This document shows, piece by piece, positions 31,461 to 47,929 of a stretch of DNA of 64,000 bases. The notes beneath the pieces were generated by a model that saw nothing but the letters and a program-made list of their open reading frames with translations, was not told the DNA's origin and made no database searches. The position numbers and the translations under genes were made by a program. How positions within the stretch are numbered: the first letter of the stretch is position 1; each line of letters begins with the position of its first letter. This DNA comes from an uncultured Candidatus Babeliaceae bacterium (GTDB lineage: Bacteria; Babelota; Babeliae; Babelales; Babelaceae), in contig OY969927.1 in assembly GCA_963704655.1 (NCBI GenBank), forward strand, positions 544,001 to 608,000, given 5' to 3'.

Positions 31461-32960
31461 CTACTGATTATGAGCCGCTCCATCCTGAGAGCTTTCATCA
31501 GAGCCGATCACTTCGCCACTGGCTACGGCTTTCTCATAGCGACGTCCTAAAAAGTGCGCTACTACCATCCAACAGCCTATGATCAAGGTAAAGAAGATAC
31601 CATTAACTGCATTTATTGATATAAATACAGTCCCAAGTTTCCCAGAGATTCCAGAAAACGTTGCACCAACGCTTTTAGCGAACTTAGTACCAAATGAATC
31701 GATCCACGATTTTGATTTAAACTTAATAAGCTTAGTCGTTGGAATATATAAGCTTTCACGCAATGGGGAGGCAAATGCATAATTAAGGGCTTTAAGTAAA
31801 ATATACACAAGACTTATACTTGTCGCAGCCGCTTGATTTGTTATCTCTGACGCGGTGAAGTAATATACCATTAAAACGGCAGTGATAATAGGCACCAGAA
31901 GCAAGGAGCGTCTTTCACCTAAATATTCAATAAGCGCTCTGGTTCCTAAAAGGGTAATAAAAAAACCAACTAGATGCACCCAGAAATCATCGCCTAGCAA
32001 CGATGCTGTTTTTTGAGAAATAGTAAATGATGCCGCGCCAGCCACTACTACACGCTCAATGTTAACATAGACATTAACCACTTCCCAGAAGGAAACAACA
32101 CCCAATATTCCCATAACATAGGGATATTTTACCATAAGGGTAAGTCCTTCAAGGTTCTTTTTCAGGGCATCCCACCAACTAGCTGCAGGCTGTTTCTCTT
32201 CTTTTGCATGCTGCTTTTCAAACTTATACGCCGCTTCATAGCCATGCATTGTTTTAGAAGGAACAAAATAAATCATTAATGCAATCAAAACAGGAACAAC
32301 AAGAAGCAACCCTGAGGTCATATAAAAAAGAATTTGATGGTTAAATGCATCAGAAAGTAATTGTTGTCCAGTTACTGGATCAATTCGTCTTAACCACCAG
32401 CAGGCAAATGTCGTTGCAACAACACCACCAAATTTTGAAGCCGCCACCATAATAGGATAATTACTTTTTGCGGCACTGGGCGAAGTTATAGAGTGGCTGA
32501 AGGACCAAAAAAGACCGACCACAAAGGGATTAAAGCCATCCATAAAAAAGTATAAGAGCCAACCAAAAATCCTATCTACGCTTTGCTCAGTATTAGGCAA
32601 TCCGATAGTTGGATGGGTAATAAAATAACCGATAACCAAGCCACCAACCCCATAAATTACACTATAAAGTGTCATAAGCTGCGCTCGACGCATAACATCT
32701 ACAAGCTTAGAAAAAAGCAAAATTGCAGGAATCAGAAGTATCATTGACCATAACTTAGCAACTGCAAGCGACTCTTTGCCGCCTACAATACTCATAAAAA
32801 GAGAGTCTTTAAGCGTACGAACCACCGTATAAGTACCAATAATGCAAAAGAATGAAAGAGAAAGAAGTAAGACTTTTACACGCTCATCTTTTTTAATATA
32901 CACCAACTTATTATAAAGTGCGTGTAATGAAAACTTAGAAAATATGCCCTTAAAACCCAT
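31461..32960 (-). CDS. NTT/TLC-family nucleotide (ATP/ADP) translocase, copy 2
   Basis: Multiple TM segments; Y.VVRTLKDSLF, LFWSF....AKSNY, LYIPT....KFKSKSWID.FG.KFAK. Confidence 0.88.
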   Translation of the reverse strand: MGFKGIFSKFSLHALYNKLVYIKKDERVKVLLLSLSFFCIIGTYTVVRTLKDSLFMSIVGGKESLAVAKLWSMILLIPAILLFSKLVDVMRRAQLMTLYSVIYGVGGLVIGYFITHPTIGLPNTEQSVDRIFGWLLYFFMDGFNPFVVGLFWSFSHSITSPSAAKSNYPIMVAASKFGGVVATTFACWWLRRIDPVTGQQLLSDAFNHQILFYMTSGLLLVVPVLIALMIYFVPSKTMHGYEAAYKFEKQHAKEEKQPAASWWDALKKNLEGLTLMVKYPYVMGILGVVSFWEVVNVYVNIERVVVAGAASFTISQKTASLLGDDFWVHLVGFFITLLGTRALIEYLGERRSLLLVPIITAVLMVYYFTASEITNQAAATSISLVYILLKALNYAFASPLRESLYIPTTKLIKFKSKSWIDSFGTKFAKSVGATFSGISGKLGTVFISINAVNGIFFTLIIGCWMVVAHFLGRRYEKAVASGEVIGSDESSQDGAAHNQ

Positions 32961-32982
32961 AATATCCCTTACCCTTAGAAAG

Positions 32983-33022
32983 ATGGGTTTTCTTATGAAA
33001 CTTTTATCACAAGAAAACCCAT
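32983..33022 (-). terminator. Hairpin between the two NTT genes (terminator or attenuator)
   Basis: 12-bp inverted repeat atgggttttctt/aagaaaacccat. Confidence 0.55.
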
Positions 33023-33058
33023 TTTATTTACAACATAGTGCTTAACACAAGATGATCA

Positions 33059-34633
33059 TTAACAAACAACGCGTTTTTCGTCGATTGCACTTTTGTATGT
33101 TTTACCAAGATAAAGCGCTACAAAGAACCACATCGCAACCAATCCATAACCAAGAACTGATGCCATTAAAATATAATGTGATTTTCCAACTACATCACCA
33201 AAGACTTTTTGTAATGGTTTGAGCGACATGTTAAATATCGATCCAACTTCTTTAGATCCGCGTGAACCGAATACTTCGATCCATGCTTGAGATTTAAAGC
33301 GAACATCATGAGTTGTTGGGATATAAAGCTGTTTCATAGCAGGACCATTAAGCGCATAGTTAATCGCTTTAGAACCAACCATAAGCCAGAACAAGAATGT
33401 TAAGCTATCAAAGGTAATAAATCCAGTAATTGCACCAGCTACAATAATAGGCATCATAACTAAAGCAACGCCTACGCCAAGTAAACGAGTGATATTACTT
33501 ACACCAAGCAATAAGCAGATCAGTGAAATAATATTAACATATGAACCATATTGACCAAGATACGCATCAAGATCACGGCCTACATAGTGAGTACTTGCAA
33601 GAACTTTGAAATTGAAATCAAAGATAGTAACAATAATCTCATAGCTAGCGATAGCTGCAAAGATGCCCATCAAATACCTATGGCTTAATAATAATTTTAA
33701 CCCTTCAAGGAATCCTGGCTCTTGCTCTTTTTCAGCAGCAGCTTCGTTTTTACCATGAAATGAAGCAAGTAATGCTTTAGGCGTAACTTTTAAGAAGTTT
33801 TTGATTAAAACACCTACTAAACCAATGCTAATTGCGCATACAAAGAAAGAAATTGCACTGGTTGTTTTTAAATATGCTGGAACAAATTGCGCAAATGACA
33901 CTAAAGATGCACCAAAAGGCTTTAAATAATTAGGAATGTTATCAATACTTTCAAACTTTTGTAAAGTCTGTGCTATTGGCGTAACAAACATTGGCCCGAT
34001 GATACCACCAAATTGGCCAATTGCGGTAACAAGATAGAACCCTTTTTTTGCAGAGTTTGAATCTGTTGTATCAGAAGCAAAAGCCCAAAACAATGCCACA
34101 ACCAATGAGCCATAGCTTTCAACAAAAATATAGATCACATAACCCAAAACTTTTGTTAAGTAATATTCAGCGCCTGTATATGAAGCAATAGTTGCTGCAT
34201 CAGCCTGAAATTTACATAATAACAGACCAAATAATAATGCACCACCGGCATAAATAGTTGAAAGAATATAGAACATCTTCTCACGAGAGTATCTGTCCAT
34301 AAGCTTTGTGTAGAACATAACTAATGGGAAAAGCAAAAACAATGAAGCTGTTTTAGCCCAAGGAATATCATGCTTGCTCACAAGATTTATAAAAACTGAA
34401 TCTTTTAAAACGCGAAGTGTCCAATAAGAGCCAATAATAAGAGCAAAAATTAGACCCATACGGAGGAATTTCTTAAACTCTTCTTTTTCAAACTCGCCAA
34501 AAATTGGTCTGAAAATATACTGTAACGCCGGAAGTATCATACAAAAGTCCTTTTTGTAGGTAAAAAATAAAAAAAGTTTCATATTTATATTACTACGCGA
34601 TTTTTCTTTTGTAAAACTAAAAAACCCGCTCAT
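33059..34633 (-). CDS. NTT/TLC-family nucleotide (ATP/ADP) translocase, copy 1
   Basis: EEFKKFL, YWTLRVLKDSVF, LFWAFA....AKKGFY, LYIPT..VRFKSQAWIE.FG.R.SK. Real start probably near 34540 (MILPAL). Confidence 0.9.
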   Translation of the reverse strand: MSGFFSFTKEKSRSNINMKLFLFFTYKKDFCMILPALQYIFRPIFGEFEKEEFKKFLRMGLIFALIIGSYWTLRVLKDSVFINLVSKHDIPWAKTASLFLLFPLVMFYTKLMDRYSREKMFYILSTIYAGGALLFGLLLCKFQADAATIASYTGAEYYLTKVLGYVIYIFVESYGSLVVALFWAFASDTTDSNSAKKGFYLVTAIGQFGGIIGPMFVTPIAQTLQKFESIDNIPNYLKPFGASLVSFAQFVPAYLKTTSAISFFVCAISIGLVGVLIKNFLKVTPKALLASFHGKNEAAAEKEQEPGFLEGLKLLLSHRYLMGIFAAIASYEIIVTIFDFNFKVLASTHYVGRDLDAYLGQYGSYVNIISLICLLLGVSNITRLLGVGVALVMMPIIVAGAITGFITFDSLTFLFWLMVGSKAINYALNGPAMKQLYIPTTHDVRFKSQAWIEVFGSRGSKEVGSIFNMSLKPLQKVFGDVVGKSHYILMASVLGYGLVAMWFFVALYLGKTYKSAIDEKRVVC

Positions 34634-39357: not shown

Positions 39358-40356
39358 ATGAAAACAGTATTTCACCATACATTCTTAATGCTATTATTCT
39401 GCTTCTCTGTTTCTACTGAATGCATGCAGGAAAGAAATCTCTTCACCCTACTTAAGCAACGCGAAACCTTCGGACGAACTGATACTAAAAAAATAAAAAA
39501 TAGTATAGCAACGATGCAACACCCCGAGGTAGTTGATACATTACGCAAAATTGATATATGGGAAGATGTTATGCCCGCCATCCCGATAGAATATGTTCCT
39601 GACGAATCAGCTTCATTTGAAGATAATATCCTAATGGATATTATACCCCCAGCACTACATGATAAAACACATGAATTTAAAACAGCGATCGCAGAAAAAT
39701 TAACTAGCCGTTTGCATATCGCGCCTGTTGATAAATTATTTGCAATAGCATTGGTAGAAGCAGGAGCACACCCAGATATATTCTTAAAACATAATTTTTA
39801 CTTAAATGAATACAATTACACAAACGCACTTTTGACGCGGGGAGGTAATCCTAATATTTTTATCGAAGAATTTAATTATGGATATGATGTGCATGAAAAT
39901 CAACCTTTATTATTTAGTGCAGAAAAGCTTACATTAATCAAACTTATGATATTGCATGGCGCCAATATACACGCAAGAAGCTCTATATCACGCGAAACAA
40001 TATTGCATGCCGCAGCGAATAATCAAATTTTATCAGCTGAAATTTTATTATTTTATATAAGAAACAACATTAATGTTAATGCAAAAGATGCTTTTGGTTC
40101 AACGCCACTTGAGGTTTTGATACTTAATAAAGAAAGCTATGTGGGTGGATACAAAAAAAGATTGCCTGACGTGGTAAATATTTTACTTAATAATGGGGCT
40201 CATTATAAAAGAGCATTAAAACTTGTTGAAGAAAAGCTAAAAGAACCATTTCCAATACTTTATACAAACAAATGTAGAATATTATACGATATTTTGACCA
40301 AACATGATGCATATGCAGAAGAAGCATATCGATTAAGAAATATAACTCTAGATTGA
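39358..40356 (+). CDS. Ankyrin-repeat secreted protein
   Basis: Signal peptide; HGANIHAR..ETILHAAA, NVNAKDAFGSTPL, LLNNGA. Confidence 0.85.
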   Translation: MKTVFHHTFLMLLFCFSVSTECMQERNLFTLLKQRETFGRTDTKKIKNSIATMQHPEVVDTLRKIDIWEDVMPAIPIEYVPDESASFEDNILMDIIPPALHDKTHEFKTAIAEKLTSRLHIAPVDKLFAIALVEAGAHPDIFLKHNFYLNEYNYTNALLTRGGNPNIFIEEFNYGYDVHENQPLLFSAEKLTLIKLMILHGANIHARSSISRETILHAAANNQILSAEILLFYIRNNINVNAKDAFGSTPLEVLILNKESYVGGYKKRLPDVVNILLNNGAHYKRALKLVEEKLKEPFPILYTNKCRILYDILTKHDAYAEEAYRLRNITLD

Positions 40357-42935: not shown

Positions 42936-44042
42936 ATGAAAAGCCATACACGTGTATTATTTATTTTTCTCTTGTGCGTAGCGCTGCTGACCTGCATCGG
43001 CTTTATCTTTATTTATTCCTCAAGTTCTGCATATGCATTAGAACGCTATCAAGACGGTCTTTTCTATGCGAAAAAACAGTTTCTTGGACTTATTTTAGGT
43101 ATAATCGGTGGCCTAATATTATCGATTATCCCCTTAAACTTTCTGAAAAATGCGGCGCCCTATCTGTTTCTGTGTGCACTGTGCGCAACAGCTGCAACAT
43201 TGTTGCCCTATGTCGGCGTATCGATCCATGGCTCACACCGGTGGCTTTCTCTTGCAGGGTTTTCTTTTCAGCCGAGTGAATTTTTAAAAATATTTTTTAT
43301 CTTGTATTGTGCGTACTTTTTAGAAAAGAAACAGTTTTCATTACATGCCATTAAACATTACATGCAACTACTTATTGTCATAAGTATCACAGCGGGGATA
43401 CTGTTATTGCAGCCAGATTTTGGACAGATGGTGACGTTGAGCTTAACAGCAGTTTTATTATTTTTCTTAGCCCAAGTACCGATCATATATTTAGCTATTA
43501 CCGGCATTCCTGTTTTACCAATTCTGGGACTACTTGTTTATCTTAAACCCTATCGTTTCCATAGAATTTTAATTTATCAAAACCCATGGAAAGATCCACA
43601 GGGTGCAGGTTTTCAAATTATACAATCTCTGATTGCTATCGGCTCTGGCGGCTGGACCGGCGTTGGAATTGCACAATCAAAACAGAAATTCTTTTATTTA
43701 CCGATGCACCATACAGATTTTATTTTTTCAATTATTGCCGAAGAGACAGGATTTTTAGGTGTTACATTTTTGATTAGTATTTATTGTATCTTTTTATTTA
43801 CCGGCTTTAAACTTGCATCGTATATGAAGGAACAGTTTTCATTTTTATGCATAGCAGGTATCGTTACCCTGATTACATTACAAACTATTATTAATATCGG
43901 CGTTGCATGCGCATTGCTGCCTACCAAAGGAATCGGGCTGCCCTTTATTAGCTATGGTGCATCATCACTACTTGCACATTTATGCATGATCGGCGTTATT
44001 TGCAATTGCGTAAAAAGCAACCGTTCCCTTCGTATTCATTAA
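42936..44042 (+). CDS. ftsW: FtsW (SEDS peptidoglycan polymerase)
   Basis: RWL..FQPSEF.K, QPDFG, GFQ.IQS.IAIGSGG, HTDFIF, LPFISYG; follows murD. Confidence 0.93.
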   Translation: MKSHTRVLFIFLLCVALLTCIGFIFIYSSSSAYALERYQDGLFYAKKQFLGLILGIIGGLILSIIPLNFLKNAAPYLFLCALCATAATLLPYVGVSIHGSHRWLSLAGFSFQPSEFLKIFFILYCAYFLEKKQFSLHAIKHYMQLLIVISITAGILLLQPDFGQMVTLSLTAVLLFFLAQVPIIYLAITGIPVLPILGLLVYLKPYRFHRILIYQNPWKDPQGAGFQIIQSLIAIGSGGWTGVGIAQSKQKFFYLPMHHTDFIFSIIAEETGFLGVTFLISIYCIFLFTGFKLASYMKEQFSFLCIAGIVTLITLQTIINIGVACALLPTKGIGLPFISYGASSLLAHLCMIGVICNCVKSNRSLRIH

Positions 44043-45175
44043 TCAACTTCACTAAATGGTTCATATTGCGCAGAAGGCTCAACTGCTTTAGCGGAAATTA
44101 ATGGTTTTCTATGCTCAACGGGAGAATATCTTCTTAGTGGGCGCGTTAATCTTAATGTTTCAGTAGGCTTAGGGTTTTCTGCCTGCCGGCTTGCACGCTC
44201 AAAAAAGAAAAGATACGACTGAAACCTCTGCCGAAATGCGCCTTGGGGCTCGCCTTGAAGAATGTTGCCTAAGCGCCCTTCATTAATTGGCTCAATATGC
44301 GAATCATTACACAAGTACCACTGATTACCATAACGGCTTACTGCAATATAATGGCCCCCCTTTAAAGAAGATCCAGAATGCAAAACAGCCCCAATTAATG
44401 AATACCAATACTTAGTAGACGAGTCATCTTTTTTAGACAGATAAAATTGATGGGTTAATGACCATATGGGAATCATATGCTTTTCAAGCATCTCATTAAC
44501 TCGAGGTGCTGTTACCACTAAAATCTCTGAAGCCTGGTTAAAATTATTCTCTTCGCTCATAATGAACGAGCCCATTTTTCCAGCAGGGTTTGTGCCTTCA
44601 ACCGTAGCTTTTTTTGATACAGAGAAAAAACTTTTTATTAACGTTTCTATTGCCGTTCCTTGTTCACGTTTTTCTACAGGCACATAATCAAAAGGTATAT
44701 TTAAATGAAATAATCCATACTCTCTATTATCTACTTCAACCCTATCAAAAACTTTTTTATAGGTATACCCTATTTTAAATAAATTTGTTAATGCTGGCTT
44801 TGGATAAAGATGGTCAATAAATTTTATAAAAAATTCTTCTGCATCCTGTTGTCGGCCAACTTCATTAAATATATTTGTATTTACAAGATTCACTAATTCT
44901 GCTGGAGCAATAGAACTTTCAGAAGTAGAACTATACTGCTTAATCAAACTCTGCAATGCTTGCGTAAAATTTTTATCAATCGAATTATCCCCTTCACCTG
45001 GCTCATAAGAAAGAACTGTATCGCGAAAAGATTTAGTCGCAAACAAACATTGCAACGTAGAGTTCAAATAACAGGTATTTCCAAGATTATTAAAACCCTT
45101 AGGCATATTGAGCAGTTCAGATGAATAACTTACCTGAACTGTGCATAATAACATAAAAAATATAATTTTTTTCAT
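44039..45175 (-). CDS. Ubiquitin-specific protease (USP/UBP, peptidase C19) with signal peptide
   Basis: Cys box GFNNLGNTCYLNSTLQCL, QQDAEEF, His box YSLIGAVLHSG....GGHYIA, WYLCNDS. Confidence 0.92.
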   Translation of the reverse strand: MKKIIFFMLLCTVQVSYSSELLNMPKGFNNLGNTCYLNSTLQCLFATKSFRDTVLSYEPGEGDNSIDKNFTQALQSLIKQYSSTSESSIAPAELVNLVNTNIFNEVGRQQDAEEFFIKFIDHLYPKPALTNLFKIGYTYKKVFDRVEVDNREYGLFHLNIPFDYVPVEKREQGTAIETLIKSFFSVSKKATVEGTNPAGKMGSFIMSEENNFNQASEILVVTAPRVNEMLEKHMIPIWSLTHQFYLSKKDDSSTKYWYSLIGAVLHSGSSLKGGHYIAVSRYGNQWYLCNDSHIEPINEGRLGNILQGEPQGAFRQRFQSYLFFFERASRQAENPKPTETLRLTRPLRRYSPVEHRKPLISAKAVEPSAQYEPFSEVD

Positions 45176-45261
45176 AGCGCCCCCGAATAAAATTTTATTT
45201 ACTATTTATAATTATAACCTGAATAATATTTTTTTAGCTAGAAATAATAAAAAGTGCTCAA

Positions 45262-45293
45262 ATATAAAGGCCCCAAATTTGGGGCCTTTATAT
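45262..45293. terminator. Perfect 32-bp palindrome, probable terminator
   Basis: atataaaggccccaaa/tttggggcctttatat downstream of 45348-45761. Confidence 0.8.
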
Positions 45294-45347
45294 CTTAAAG
45301 AATCTTATAAATTAAGCTTCTACTGAAGAATCGGTATCTTGCGGAGC

Positions 45348-45761
45348 CTACGGCATAGGACAAACTTCTTGTGGTGCAGCAGCAGCTTCTATTTTTTCTG
45401 CTACTTCAGCAGCATTAACTTGTGCATTTAAAGCTGCCTGAATTTCAAGTTTTCTTGCAAGAGATGCTGATATAATTTTTTCAAAAAAAGATATAAAACT
45501 TCCGCAGACCTTACTGTTTGCTGCCAGATCTTCACATCTTTTCAATGTCCCCTTACGAAGATCTAAGAAAGCTTGTACTTTTTCATCGAGCTCTAAAGGA
45601 TTAGTAATTTGGGCTATCTCTTTTGCTTGCACTTCAGCTTGAGCTCTTATCATTATTTCAACAGCTTCTTCAGGCGTAGCTATATAGATTGTTAATCTTT
45701 CCTGCTCAGAGTAAGCAATGTTCTTAGAAAGTAACAATAAACCTAATAATAATTTTTTCAT
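45348..45761 (-). CDS. Secreted hypothetical protein (paralog of 45828-46364)
   Basis: MKKLLLGLL leader; EK..A.L.L..C..VC..FI.F...I..S..RK.E..AAL. Confidence 0.75.
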   Translation of the reverse strand: MKKLLLGLLLLSKNIAYSEQERLTIYIATPEEAVEIMIRAQAEVQAKEIAQITNPLELDEKVQAFLDLRKGTLKRCEDLAANSKVCGSFISFFEKIISASLARKLEIQAALNAQVNAAEVAEKIEAAAAPQEVCPMP

Positions 45762-45827: not shown

Positions 45828-46364
45828 CTATATTAATGTTTCTACTTGAGCAGCTTTTTCAGCAGCAGTCTTTGCAGCTTCAATGGCATCAGCAATAACA
45901 GTTGTATCTACTACAGCTTCTGCTTTTGCTTCTAAATCAACAAAATCAGTTTCTGAAGTGGTCTCAACCGCAGCTACTACTGATTCAGTAACTACAGGCT
46001 CATGTGTTTGAGCTAATGCTGCGCCAAGTTCATTTTTACGTTCTTCTGAAACGGTAATCAATCCTTGTACAAATGCAATAAATTCATCACAAACTGCAGG
46101 AACCCCACTTTGTGTACGACAATTGGCTGAAGCATCCTGCTCTATTAATTTCAACAGAGCAAGTCTTTTTTCATTCACATGTGCGTCACTACTTTTAATC
46201 GCAGATACATATTGTCCATGCAGCGCTTCTAGAGCGTTTTGCACTCCATTTTTCATCGATAAACCCATCAAAACACCAGCGGGGTTAAAAAGTCCAGGAT
46301 TAATCTCAATGTTGCAAAAAACTGAATTTGTAACAAACAATAAACCTAACAATATTTTTTTCAT
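45828..46364 (-). CDS. Secreted hypothetical protein (paralog of 45348-45761)
   Basis: MKKILLGLL leader, same core motif, Ala/Glu/Thr-rich tail. Confidence 0.75.
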   Translation of the reverse strand: MKKILLGLLFVTNSVFCNIEINPGLFNPAGVLMGLSMKNGVQNALEALHGQYVSAIKSSDAHVNEKRLALLKLIEQDASANCRTQSGVPAVCDEFIAFVQGLITVSEERKNELGAALAQTHEPVVTESVVAAVETTSETDFVDLEAKAEAVVDTTVIADAIEAAKTAAEKAAQVETLI

Positions 46365-46402: not shown

Positions 46403-47929
46403 TTATTCAAAATGCATAAGAAAATCGATAAACAGACGTACACCAAAACCGGTTGCCCCAGGACGATAATAACTCATATCAGGAACATTAAACGAAGTAC
46501 CTGCAATATCCAAATGTACCCATGGCGTTTCACCCACAAAATTTTGTAAGAAAAATCCTGCAGTAATTGCACCAGCTTTATATGTTTCATTACCAATGTT
46601 ACACATATCAGCTATATGCGAACGAACAGCACGTTTATAATCTTCATGAAAAGGAAGACGCCATAGGCGGTCGCCTGAACGCTGAGATGCTATTGTAAGT
46701 TTATCTACTATCTCATCATGATTACTCATCATACCCGCAAAGAAAGGTCCTAAAGCCGCGGCACATGAACCAGTAAGCGTTGCGACGTTAATAATCATGT
46801 CTGGCTTATAATGTTTAACGGCATAAGAAAGCGCATCTGCAAGAATTAAACGGCCTTCTGCATCAGTATTTTTAACTTCAGCGGTCATGCCATTATAAAA
46901 CGTTACGATATCACCCGGTTTAACAGCGGTCCCTGAAGGCATATTTTCTGCAATTGGGGTAATGCCGATAACATTAACACGTGGTTTTAAATGTGAAATT
47001 GCTTCCATAGTTGATATAACTGCAGCTGCACCGGCCATGTCATCTTTCATTTCATCCATGCGTGATGCTGGCTTAATACTAATGCCACCTGAGTCAAAAG
47101 TGATGCCCTTACCAGTAAGAACTATAGTTGGAGCATCTTTATGTTCTGTATGGTACTCGATTGCAACAAAACGGCATTCCTGCACAGAGCCTGCTGCAAC
47201 TGCAGCAAGACCGCCCATGCCCATTTTCTTTACTGTCGGCTCATCATAAACGGTTATTTTTAAATTATGAACCTGCGCAATGCGAACTGCATGCTCAGCA
47301 AGAATTTTAGGAGTCAAAACATCTGCTGGCAAATCACACCATTGACGGGCCTGATTTACTGCATGACCGATTCGTTGACCAAATTCTAAGCCAACTGACA
47401 TTTGATCATGTAAAATCTCAGAAGCACAAAGTATTATTTCTATATCGCGCGTTGATTTATTTGCTGGATCAGTAATAAACTGGTCAAAATGATACGCTGC
47501 CATCATGAAAACAGAGACCAACTCTTTAGTTAATTCAAATTCATTGATTCCAAACCAGTGATGATCTGGCATTAAAACTGCTACTCGTGCAGCTTTTACG
47601 CTTTCAGCAGCTCGAATAACTAAACCCGTAGCACGACGTGCGTATTCTAAACGATCAGTAGCAGATTTTTTTTCTGAACCTAATCCAACCAACAGTAGTG
47701 ATACCGGTTTATTGCTACGAATGGCGGCCAAAAGCAGCTGGCTACCTGCAGCCCCAGTAAAATTACGGTTTTTAATGACTTCATGCAAAGGCGCATACAG
47801 CGTTGAAAAATCTTTAAGTAAATTTTCAAGAAGGGTACTCTCTGAAAGAGCATTTTGGGGACAAAAGCCAACATACAAGTCAGCATCATGCCCTACTATA
47901 TGTTGATTTGCCAGTTTAAAGTTAAGCAT
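46403..47929 (-). CDS. pepA: Leucyl aminopeptidase (M17)
   Basis: GKGITFDSGG, MK.DMAGAA, NTDAEGRL, WVHLDIAG. Confidence 0.96.
   Translation of the reverse strand: MLNFKLANQHIVGHDADLYVGFCPQNALSESTLLENLLKDFSTLYAPLHEVIKNRNFTGAAGSQLLLAAIRSNKPVSLLLVGLGSEKKSATDRLEYARRATGLVIRAAESVKAARVAVLMPDHHWFGINEFELTKELVSVFMMAAYHFDQFITDPANKSTRDIEIILCASEILHDQMSVGLEFGQRIGHAVNQARQWCDLPADVLTPKILAEHAVRIAQVHNLKITVYDEPTVKKMGMGGLAAVAAGSVQECRFVAIEYHTEHKDAPTIVLTGKGITFDSGGISIKPASRMDEMKDDMAGAAAVISTMEAISHLKPRVNVIGITPIAENMPSGTAVKPGDIVTFYNGMTAEVKNTDAEGRLILADALSYAVKHYKPDMIINVATLTGSCAAALGPFFAGMMSNHDEIVDKLTIASQRSGDRLWRLPFHEDYKRAVRSHIADMCNIGNETYKAGAITAGFFLQNFVGETPWVHLDIAGTSFNVPDMSYYRPGATGFGVRLFIDFLMHFE

Follow-up and report, generated by a model that had tools for sequence, protein, structure and literature searches.

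What is a ubiquitin-specific protease (USP) of eukaryotic type doing in a bacterial chromosome, and where would such an enzyme act? The question is raised by one gene in a 64,000-nucleotide stretch of DNA, here called the window, from an uncultured Candidatus Babeliaceae bacterium (NCBI GenBank assembly GCA_963704655.1, contig OY969927.1, positions 544,001 to 608,000 of the forward strand; coordinates below count from the first letter of the window). A first-pass annotation made from the letters had described the gene at 44039-45175 as a USP behind a signal peptide and had proposed a host-directed effector that strips ubiquitin. Our computational analysis leads to a similar view: the window USP is probably a Sec-exported deubiquitinase acting on host ubiquitin conjugates. 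The best explanation of its sequence is a catalytically competent, conventional, Fingers-bearing and zinc-less cysteine protease of an obligate protist-associated bacterium of the phylum Dependentiae.

Family, catalytic residues and predicted fold

The gene and its parts are as follows.

44039..45175, minus strand: USP gene (MEROPS C19 / Pfam PF00443), 378 codons plus stop; open reading frame (ORF) list, Pfam UCH, whole-domain fold match
45119..45175, minus strand: predicted Sec-type leader, codons 1-19 (MKK, core IIFFMLLCTV, SYS before the likely cut); hydrophobicity rule, conservation, model helix
44186..45097, minus strand: USP catalytic domain (Thumb, Fingers, Palm), residues 27-330; Pfam, AlphaFold2, Foldseek
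45071..45073, minus strand: codon of catalytic Cys35 (Cys box GNTCYLNS; N30 at -5); alignment of 28 USPs
44843..44851, minus strand: QQD box, Q109 Q110 D111; alignment of 28 USPs
44348..44353, minus strand: catalytic His275 and aromatic gatekeeper Tyr276 (GGHY), H275 codon 44351-44353; alignment
44303..44308, minus strand: Asn290-Asp291 (CNDS), position of the third catalytic residue, N290 at 44306-44308 and D291 at 44303-44305; alignment
44042..44167, minus strand: Pro/Arg-rich tail, residues 337-378, predicted disordered (pLDDT, the predicted local distance difference test, below 50)

The program-made ORF list gives a frame of 378 amino acids that opens with MKKIIFFMLLCTVQVSYS (its N-terminal letters are also given as MKKIIFFMLLCTVQVSYSSELLNMPKGFNNLGNTCYLNS) and contains the motifs GNTCYLNS, QQDAEEF, GGHY and WYLCNDS. 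In the Pfam search that the first-pass annotation had proposed, PF00443 (UCH) matches at E 3.5e-36, scoring 125.5 bits where the cut-off is 23.9 and covering residues 27-304 and profile positions 2-242 of 254; PF13423 also matches (E 1.3e-5). A sequence search of the PDB returned 94 distinct sequences at E <= 0.001, and all 60 of those listed are USPs, the best among them being yeast Ubp6 (2.2e-16), followed by human USP36, USP12/46, USP2 and USP21.

The catalytic residues were read from an alignment of 28 USPs of the lineage (A1). C35, Q42 and D111 are invariant in 28/28 rows, and N30, N38, G274, H275, Y276, W286 and D291 are kept in at least 90% of them. N30 stands five residues ahead of C35, in GFNNLGNTCYLNS; the QQD/QDE box reads Q109-Q110-D111-A-E-E-F; and GGH275-Y276 is followed about 15 residues further by W286-Y-L-C-N290-D291-S. 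We take N30 to be the oxyanion Asn, by homology to USP7 N218, and N290/D291 to hold the triad position, by homology with USP2 and USP7. With the profile match, these aligned residues and the fold match described next, the complete catalytic signature reported at first sight is upheld.

The AlphaFold2 model (pLDDT 82.9; predicted template modelling score, pTM, 0.80) has a separate N-terminal helix at residues 2-22, which corresponds to the leader, and, over about residues 26-330, a compact domain in which four long antiparallel strands (135-143, 146-155, 188-195 and 201-214) occupy the position of the Fingers. Foldseek against the PDB returned at least 458 chains at E <= 0.001, and the top matches are whole catalytic domains of USP35, USP18, USP12/46, USP14, USP1 and USP34 (E about 3e-20, target-normalised template modelling score 0.72-0.80, 319-357 columns aligned). 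A Thumb-Palm-Fingers fold is thus predicted. The TssM type, in which the Fingers are absent and a 'Littlefinger' loop stands instead, was looked for and is not what is modelled here; because of the four Fingers strands and the alignment over full canonical USP domains, the window USP would be a conventional USP 'hand', unlike the fingerless TssM.

A zinc ribbon, that is two CxxC pairs in the Fingers, was looked for in the window USP and is not there. The cysteines of the protein sit only at 11, 35, 43 and 289, with none in 121-270, so the Fingers would lack the ribbon. This element is common in the USP family, not defining, and the zinc site is also missing from several human USPs. Paired Fingers cysteines are retained in the relatives at loci L008, L018, L019, L023, L030 and L032 (A1). 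Tail residues 337-378 are not alignable among relatives. Many Dependentiae USPs finish in a short heptad-like helix, L..L...L..L as in LTQLKSSLQELKTRLETL (A1 columns about 900-1000), at the place where the window USP has its Pro/Arg-rich disordered tail.

Leader, export and target

Does the protein leave the bacterial cytoplasm? The first-pass annotation had seen a signal-type leader, and a leader of this type is suggested by our own hydrophobicity rule (which also flags 58% of the crude genes of the source genome) together with conservation. The rule is a heuristic that asks for a mean Kyte-Doolittle value of at least 2.0 over nine uncharged residues within the first 30; the window USP reaches 2.88 over nine residues without charge. 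The leader fits the n-h-c layout of a Sec signal, with MKK, a 10-residue hydrophobic core and S-Y-S, and cleavage would fall around residue 18-19. The residues ahead of C11 we take, from the sequence and the general rules for such sites, to be unlike a lipobox consensus. In close relatives (9/9) M1 is invariant and the M[KR]K beginning conserved, which favours the ATG at 45175 over the Met-8 start annotated in one database gene call (P0001). A GGGGG run resembling a Shine-Dalgarno sequence lies just ahead of the same ATG.

Among the USP ORFs from the phylum loci L001-L036, 35/40 pass the rule, with the hydrophobic stretch directly ahead of the Cys box; the rule is also satisfied by 27/66 other ORFs of these loci. 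Of the five USP ORFs that fail, at least two may, judging by eye, owe this to a wrong start call or to a leader close to the threshold. A better control is offered by giant-virus USPs, because they are comparable in size and are synthesised in the host cytoplasm. Ahead of the Cys box, 0/23 of them have a hydrophobic stretch; the box lies 7-26 residues past the first Met in 22/23 and at 49 in the remaining one. For the contrast of 35/40 with 0/23, Fisher's test gives 1e-12, with kinship ignored.

The export genes of the source genome comprise SecY (within the window), two secretins, two T2SSE ATPases and two T2SSF platform genes. VirB4 was searched for in this genome and not found, and a shared C-terminal motif was sought among its leader-bearing genes, with no end tripeptide enriched.

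Several points weigh against export to a host target. The leader rule is loose: it flags 678 of the 1168 crude genes of the source genome (58%), because membrane proteins are caught too, and it does not separate a cleaved signal peptide from an uncleaved anchor. Kin are not independent, and the leader counts therefore overstate the statistics. The two secretin/ATPase sets may belong to pili instead of secretion systems. Sec plus a type II system reaches only the bacterial exterior, and entry into the host cytosol would need a cytosolic lifestyle, vesicles or a leaky vacuole, none of which is known for this organism. Proteins with a USP fold may favour ISG15, Fubi or SUMO, although ubiquitin is the likely substrate here. 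Finally, the literature that we searched holds no activity, secretion or expression data for the window USP or for any Dependentiae USP.

The ambiguity between anchor and cleaved signal bears directly on a second explanation, that of a tethered surface deubiquitinase. If the hydrophobic N-terminus stayed on as a signal anchor, or if the protein remained attached to the envelope or to vesicles, the enzyme would keep the bacterial surface or compartment free of ubiquitin and would not be a free effector. The catalytic domain starts only about eight residues after the hydrophobic stretch, as might be expected of a tether. There is also precedent: TssM has been proposed to be active at the bacterial surface and has a hydrophobic region before its domain (PMC10719079, PMC13720258), and the hydrophobic regions of the USPs of Simkania are thought to attach to membranes (PMC10643670). 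We nevertheless consider tethering rather unlikely. The layout of the leader is that of a cleaved signal, an inner-membrane anchor would confine the enzyme to the periplasm, a compartment expected to be free of ubiquitin, and so short a linker would hardly let the domain reach past the envelope.

Granted export, the target may be asked about in turn. Specificity for a ubiquitin-like modifier of the protist host, for instance NEDD8, a Fubi- or ISG15-like protein or SUMO, would be in keeping with the presence of the ISG15-specific USP18 and of Fubi-bound USP36 among the best structural matches, and the Simkania enzyme SnUSP2 also reacts with an ISG15 probe (PMC10643670). Against this, the matches to the ubiquitin-specific USP35, USP12/46, USP14, USP2 and USP21 are equally good, the window USP lies outside all sampled eukaryotic subfamilies in our trees, and ubiquitin is universal in eukaryote hosts. 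Such a specificity thus appears improbable, and host ubiquitin conjugates are retained as the favoured target.

Bacterial origin, organism and lifestyle

USPs are overwhelmingly eukaryotic, and 331 USP relatives were found on giant-virus contigs (IMG/VR; loci L079-L158). Could the gene then be a eukaryotic or giant-virus contaminant, or the product of a chimeric assembly? The first-pass annotation had named a chimeric contaminant as the finding that would overturn it, and nothing of the kind emerged. The source genome, 96% complete, consists of one closed contig (1,298,077 bp). The window bears tRNA-Ala, tRNA-Ser and a bacterial signal recognition particle RNA, and it also encodes Lon, RpoA, ribosomal protein S4, methionine aminopeptidase and SecY. 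The USP gene lies between ftsW and an aminopeptidase gene, MurD-like and FtsW genes adjoin it, and rpoA/S4/SecY are about 7 kb away. GC is even through the window (0.347-0.411 in 2-kb bins, 0.355 at the USP gene). The gene itself has a native composition: compared with the 1168 crude genes of the genome, its GC of 35.7% is at the 23rd percentile, its GC at third codon positions (GC3) at the 29th and its codon-usage likelihood at the 67th.

The same gene order, leucyl aminopeptidase (LAP), USP and ftsW, recurs in an independently assembled metagenome-assembled genome (MAG) labelled Dependentiae, and a second USP paralogue lies elsewhere in the source genome. The closest relatives form a clade of genus-level or unnamed rows (Shimodaira-Hasegawa-like approximate likelihood ratio test, SH-aLRT, 97-99), and giant-virus USPs lack the leader. 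Because of the closed contig, the native composition and the shared locus, contamination or a chimeric join is very unlikely, to the point of being negligible, and the window USP is a genuine bacterial gene. Among public sequencing runs, the share of the 4-kb stretch around the gene is small (best 0.17), and the recovered contigs are of read length, none bridging the ftsW/USP junction with 31 letters on each side. No RNA runs covering this stretch are listed among the public runs.

The nearest named USP loci belong to Dependentiae or Babeliales MAGs, and membership of the phylum Dependentiae is supported by the LAP-USP-ftsW locus held in common with the Dependentiae-labelled MAG. The closed, reduced genome is a bacterial chromosome, as the first-pass annotation had it, and with two energy-parasitism genes in the window it fits a life in or on eukaryotic cells.

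31461..34633, minus strand: two tandem TLC ATP/ADP translocase genes, 31461-32960 and 33059-34633 (PF03219, E 9.9e-20 and 9.8e-30)

Tandem TLC ATP/ADP translocases are a mark of energy parasitism. A leader-bearing ankyrin-repeat protein is encoded at 39358-40356 (plus strand), 3.7 kb from the window USP, and is followed by an ORF judged by eye to be an EamA-like transporter and by murD and ftsW; Dependentiae have been described as having effector-rich genomes, of which such a protein is typical. Cultured Dependentiae are energy parasites of protists, and the TLC genes and the ankyrin protein of the window fit this picture. In one of them, Chromulinavorax, 44% of genes carry signal peptides, and a Sec system is named as the likely export route (PMC6561590).

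A variable locus between ftsW and the aminopeptidase gene

How stable is the place of the gene in the chromosome? On the minus strand the order is aminopeptidase, S2, S1 and USP, and the flanks and inserts are the following.

42936..44042, plus strand: ftsW, conserved left flank; ORF, 70-86% identical in five genus relatives
45260..45295, minus strand: perfect 16-bp hairpin followed by a U-rich stretch, between S1 and USP; folding
45348..45761, minus strand: small secreted protein S1 (predicted), 137 aa, variable insert; ORF list, no Pfam match, absent from the G003 locus
45828..46364, minus strand: small secreted protein S2 (predicted), 178 aa, weak S1 paralogue, variable insert; ORF list, no Pfam match
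46403..47929, minus strand: LAP, conserved right flank; named from the look of its sequence

The window USP is convergent with ftsW, the stop codons overlapping at 44039-44042; the coordinates and the convergence given by the first-pass annotation are exact. The small proteins S1 and S2 are both leader-bearing, are 26% identical and have a common C...C.xF[IL][SA]F...RK stretch. Both are carried along with the USP insert, and G001 has a comparable small ORF ahead of its USP.

The hairpin at 45260-45295 was spotted by eye and then folded (-24.8 kcal/mol, z -6.2, 0/200 shuffles as good) and is probably an intrinsic terminator. Because it parts S1 from USP, the latter probably forms its own transcription unit. 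A consensus promoter/terminator scan returned 7 promoter-like sites (10.0 expected) and 2 terminator-like ones (1.8 expected), the hairpin not being among them.

In genus relatives the interval has the following content.

G003: FtsW 86% identical; ftsW-aminopeptidase gap of 124 nt with nothing between (USP gene missing)
G001: FtsW 80% identical; a 341-aa USP between, 32.5% identical
G004: FtsW 85% identical; two other small leader-bearing ORFs between
G005: FtsW 74% identical; a fibre-like protein between

LAP is 88% identical in G003. The Dependentiae-labelled MAG (locus L042) has the same order as the window, with aminopeptidase (81% identical), a small ORF, USP (32.5%) and FtsW (80%), and another MAG has an aminopeptidase (80% identical) and then a USP fragment. 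Since the content differs across genus relatives, we regard the interval between ftsW and the aminopeptidase gene as a gain-and-loss hot-spot for secreted-protein genes. The USP appears to diverge far faster than its neighbours, as expected of a host-interaction gene; identity of 32.5% in a genus relative, against 80% for FtsW and 81% for LAP, and the missing gene in G003 would be consistent with the signature of an arms race. Divergence at the locus by replacement with a paralogue instead retains a small probability. In another genus of the family (G017; L009:1300-3896) a USP also adjoins ftsW (FtsW 54% identical), with the two genes divergent and not convergent, and this adjacency may be chance or a remnant of old linkage.

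Distribution in the phylum and beyond

Is the window USP an isolated case? PF00443 matches were found in 22/41 nearest relatives, the source genome included, and across the phylum in 90/261 genomes, 63/189 high-quality genomes and 50/145 genera, with up to nine matches in one genome. The spread over families is very uneven, with 29/40, 28/35 and 5/5 in some but 0/16, 0/14 and 9/80 in others. The second USP of the source genome (G000:C1:1056232-1057215, plus strand; L002:1429-2412) has 327 aa, a leader and a GC at the 5th percentile. The two secretin genes (C1:1068670-1073730) are 11-16 kb away from it, and it adjoins what looks by eye like a nucleotidyltransferase/HEPN-like pair of small ORFs.

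Outside the phylum, 36 loci with USP relatives were recovered by a single pattern from a narrower alignment (A2) run over species genomes, which makes them a sample and not a census. They include Amoebophilus, Simkaniaceae, Chlamydiae, Puniceicoccales, Oligoflexales, Pseudobdellovibrionaceae and Poribacteria, and also MAGs labelled Dehalococcoidia, Desulfobacteraceae and Clostridia, some on short contigs that might be contaminants. An all-against-all profile search gave 8081 proteins at E <= 0.001, of which no more than 12 reach E <= 1e-30; the closest one is truncated and shares 54% identity with the window USP, and the next share 36%. The 23 giant-virus USPs that we examined are minimal, with 270-360 aa and the catalytic domain only.

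Some USPs of the set carry several catalytic domains. A 3751-aa frame with a leader-like N-terminus (L078:6431-17683, plus strand; equivalent to G146:C17), from a Dependentiae genome of the same taxonomic order, contains five USP domains, and full UCH domains number ten (in a chain of 3205 aa), seven, three and three in database proteins (P0028, P0030, P0033, P0037). We know of no earlier USP with several catalytic domains in one chain.

The distribution also bears on the idea that the USP fold was recruited for a bacterial job, either as a pseudo-enzyme or as a protease with a non-ubiquitin, periplasmic substrate. The leader would direct the protein to the periplasm, which is without ubiquitin, and SnUSP3 of Simkania is reported to cleave chains only little (PMC13720258, PMC10643670). 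In the window USP, however, every catalytic and gatekeeper residue is kept, and PF00443 has matches in 0/14 control genomes of free-living prokaryotes. The relatives outside the phylum are a mixed set of host-associated groups and other MAGs. Searches of the source genome for ubiquitin, OTU, F-box-like, U-box and Peptidase_C48 domains found no match, four of the five, that for ubiquitin among them, having been run without a positive control. On this evidence a bacterial substrate or loss of activity has a slim chance, and an active deubiquitinase directed at the host remains the preferred explanation.

Phylogeny

Where does the gene come from? The first-pass annotation had called for a phylogeny against protist, giant-virus and bacterial USPs; our trees, which sample eukaryotic, giant-virus and bacterial ones, place the window USP with its genus-level relatives. 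Both trees were built with hmmalign on a profile from the lineage's own USPs, which may favour those rows, and with IQ-TREE in 'quick' mode under LG+C20 with SH-aLRT support only. Tree 1 has 97 rows. Tree 2 has 98, with 22 rows dropped (long branches, duplicates and most other bacteria) and the 23 giant-virus USPs added.

The backbone of tree 1 is poorly supported, with 44/89 inner branches below 80. Within it the window USP falls in a 13-row clade (support 97) made up entirely of genus-level relatives or unnamed metagenomic proteins; over both trees the clade has 11-13 rows and SH-aLRT of 97-99. Its sub-lineages are an ftsW-linked group (support 96), a group with the second USP and a third group. 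In tree 2, 40/41 Dependentiae rows and five unnamed rows form one group (support 83, not strong), and giant-virus USPs group with a subset of eukaryotic USPs (support 82-86, not strong). An Amoebophilus-labelled USP does not group with the window clade. An origin from eukaryotic USP14/Ubp6, the top PDB sequence matches, was considered and rejected as unsupported, the clade being separate in both trees (SH-aLRT 96-98).

These tree data are compatible with one main acquisition followed by much duplication. A broader proposal, to which we give about even confidence, is that Dependentiae hold a very large reservoir of canonical USPs, mostly from one acquisition, multiplied, fast-diverged and all adapted to Sec by a leader before the Cys box, with some chained into secreted giants of at least five catalytic domains; the window gene would be a fast-evolving representative in a hot-spot. 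If this is true, USPs, and not CE-clan or OTU enzymes, would be the main deubiquitinase class of a whole parasitic phylum, delivered without an injection system.

Proposed mechanism

How might the enzyme serve the bacterium? We infer that the leader is cleaved, that the protein passes the outer membrane, that ubiquitin is its substrate and that the bacterium benefits, along the following lines. The USP gene would be transcribed as its own unit, downstream of the terminator-like hairpin. The protein would cross the inner membrane via Sec and lose its leader around residue 18-19. It may then leave the periplasm through either of the two machines that resemble type II secretion systems or type IV pili, or in outer-membrane vesicles. 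In the host cell it would cut the isopeptide bond after the Gly-Gly of ubiquitin, using C35, H275 and N290-D291. Ubiquitin could in this way be stripped from the bacterial surface, the compartment or host proteins, and ubiquitin-dependent autophagy or degradation would be blunted.

Taken alone, the window USP is confirmatory and supports an intracellular, host-manipulating lifestyle. What the present analysis adds is the phylum scale, the near-universal leader as compared with giant viruses, the hot-spot locus with fast divergence and the multi-domain USP giants. Small USPs consisting of leader, domain and short tail could show how parasites with only Sec and type II-like systems tamper with host ubiquitin, and they would express easily. 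The leaderless giant-virus USPs of similar size are a natural control for the export argument.

Comparison with known systems

How does the window USP compare with the bacterial USPs described so far? The deubiquitinase literature treats these as near-absent. The first-pass annotation had noted that few are characterised, and the papers agree: TssM came first, then three Simkania enzymes (PMC10643670), and a 2026 review still lists only these (PMC13720258). The reviews of 2023-2026 examined here name only these four, yet about one third of the searched Dependentiae genomes carry USPs, nearly all with a leader. In full-text literature on Dependentiae, Babeliales or TM6 together with ubiquitin we found Dependentiae USPs neither surveyed nor assayed, many subscription papers and supplements lying outside the search.

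Giant-virus USPs resemble the window USP in being minimal and in belonging to parasites of protists, and at 22-29% identity they are about as close to it as the USPs of other Dependentiae families. They differ in being leaderless and in grouping with a subset of eukaryotic USPs.

Simkania is a chlamydia with type III secretion. The three USPs of Simkania negevensis, SnUSP1-3, come from an amoeba-associated intracellular bacterium and have, like the window USP, a conventional USP domain with all active-site residues and the aromatic gatekeeper; SnUSP1 and SnUSP2 are active, linkage-promiscuous deubiquitinases (PMC10643670). The SnUSPs are large, with the catalytic domain starting from about residue 170-190 behind hydrophobic regions, whereas the window USP is minimal, with a leader, the domain and a 42-residue tail.

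A precedent for the proposed route is TssM, a USP that Burkholderia pseudomallei and B. mallei export through the general pathway and type II secretion, with no injection system (PMC10719079). In architecture the two differ, TssM being without Fingers and having a 'Littlefinger' loop and an Ig-like N-terminal domain, whereas the window USP is modelled with full Fingers. USPs have also been predicted in Amoebophilus asiaticus (Aasi_0770, Aasi_1805) and Cardinium hertigii (CAHE_0028) (PMC8831229, PMC3486910), and one Amoebophilus USP is up-regulated 12 h after infection of amoeba (PMC8831229). These are USP genes of obligate intracellular symbionts of eukaryotes, as the window gene probably is, in a different phylum (Bacteroidota).

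The closest precedent by description lies within the phylum. Babela massiliensis was predicted to encode three secreted C19 hydrolases (Pagnier et al., 2015; PMC4378268). They and the window USP are of the same phylum and the same C19/USP family, and for both, secretion by signal peptide and interference with host ubiquitin are predicted; the window USP belongs to a different genus and genome (1.30 Mb, 38% GC), and the two are likened by description, not by sequence. Because secreted C19 hydrolases were already predicted for Babela in 2015, the window USP adds to an established predicted class, and the phylum-wide count, the leader statistics and the variability of the locus go beyond the text of the Babela paper as far as it was available (PMC4378268).

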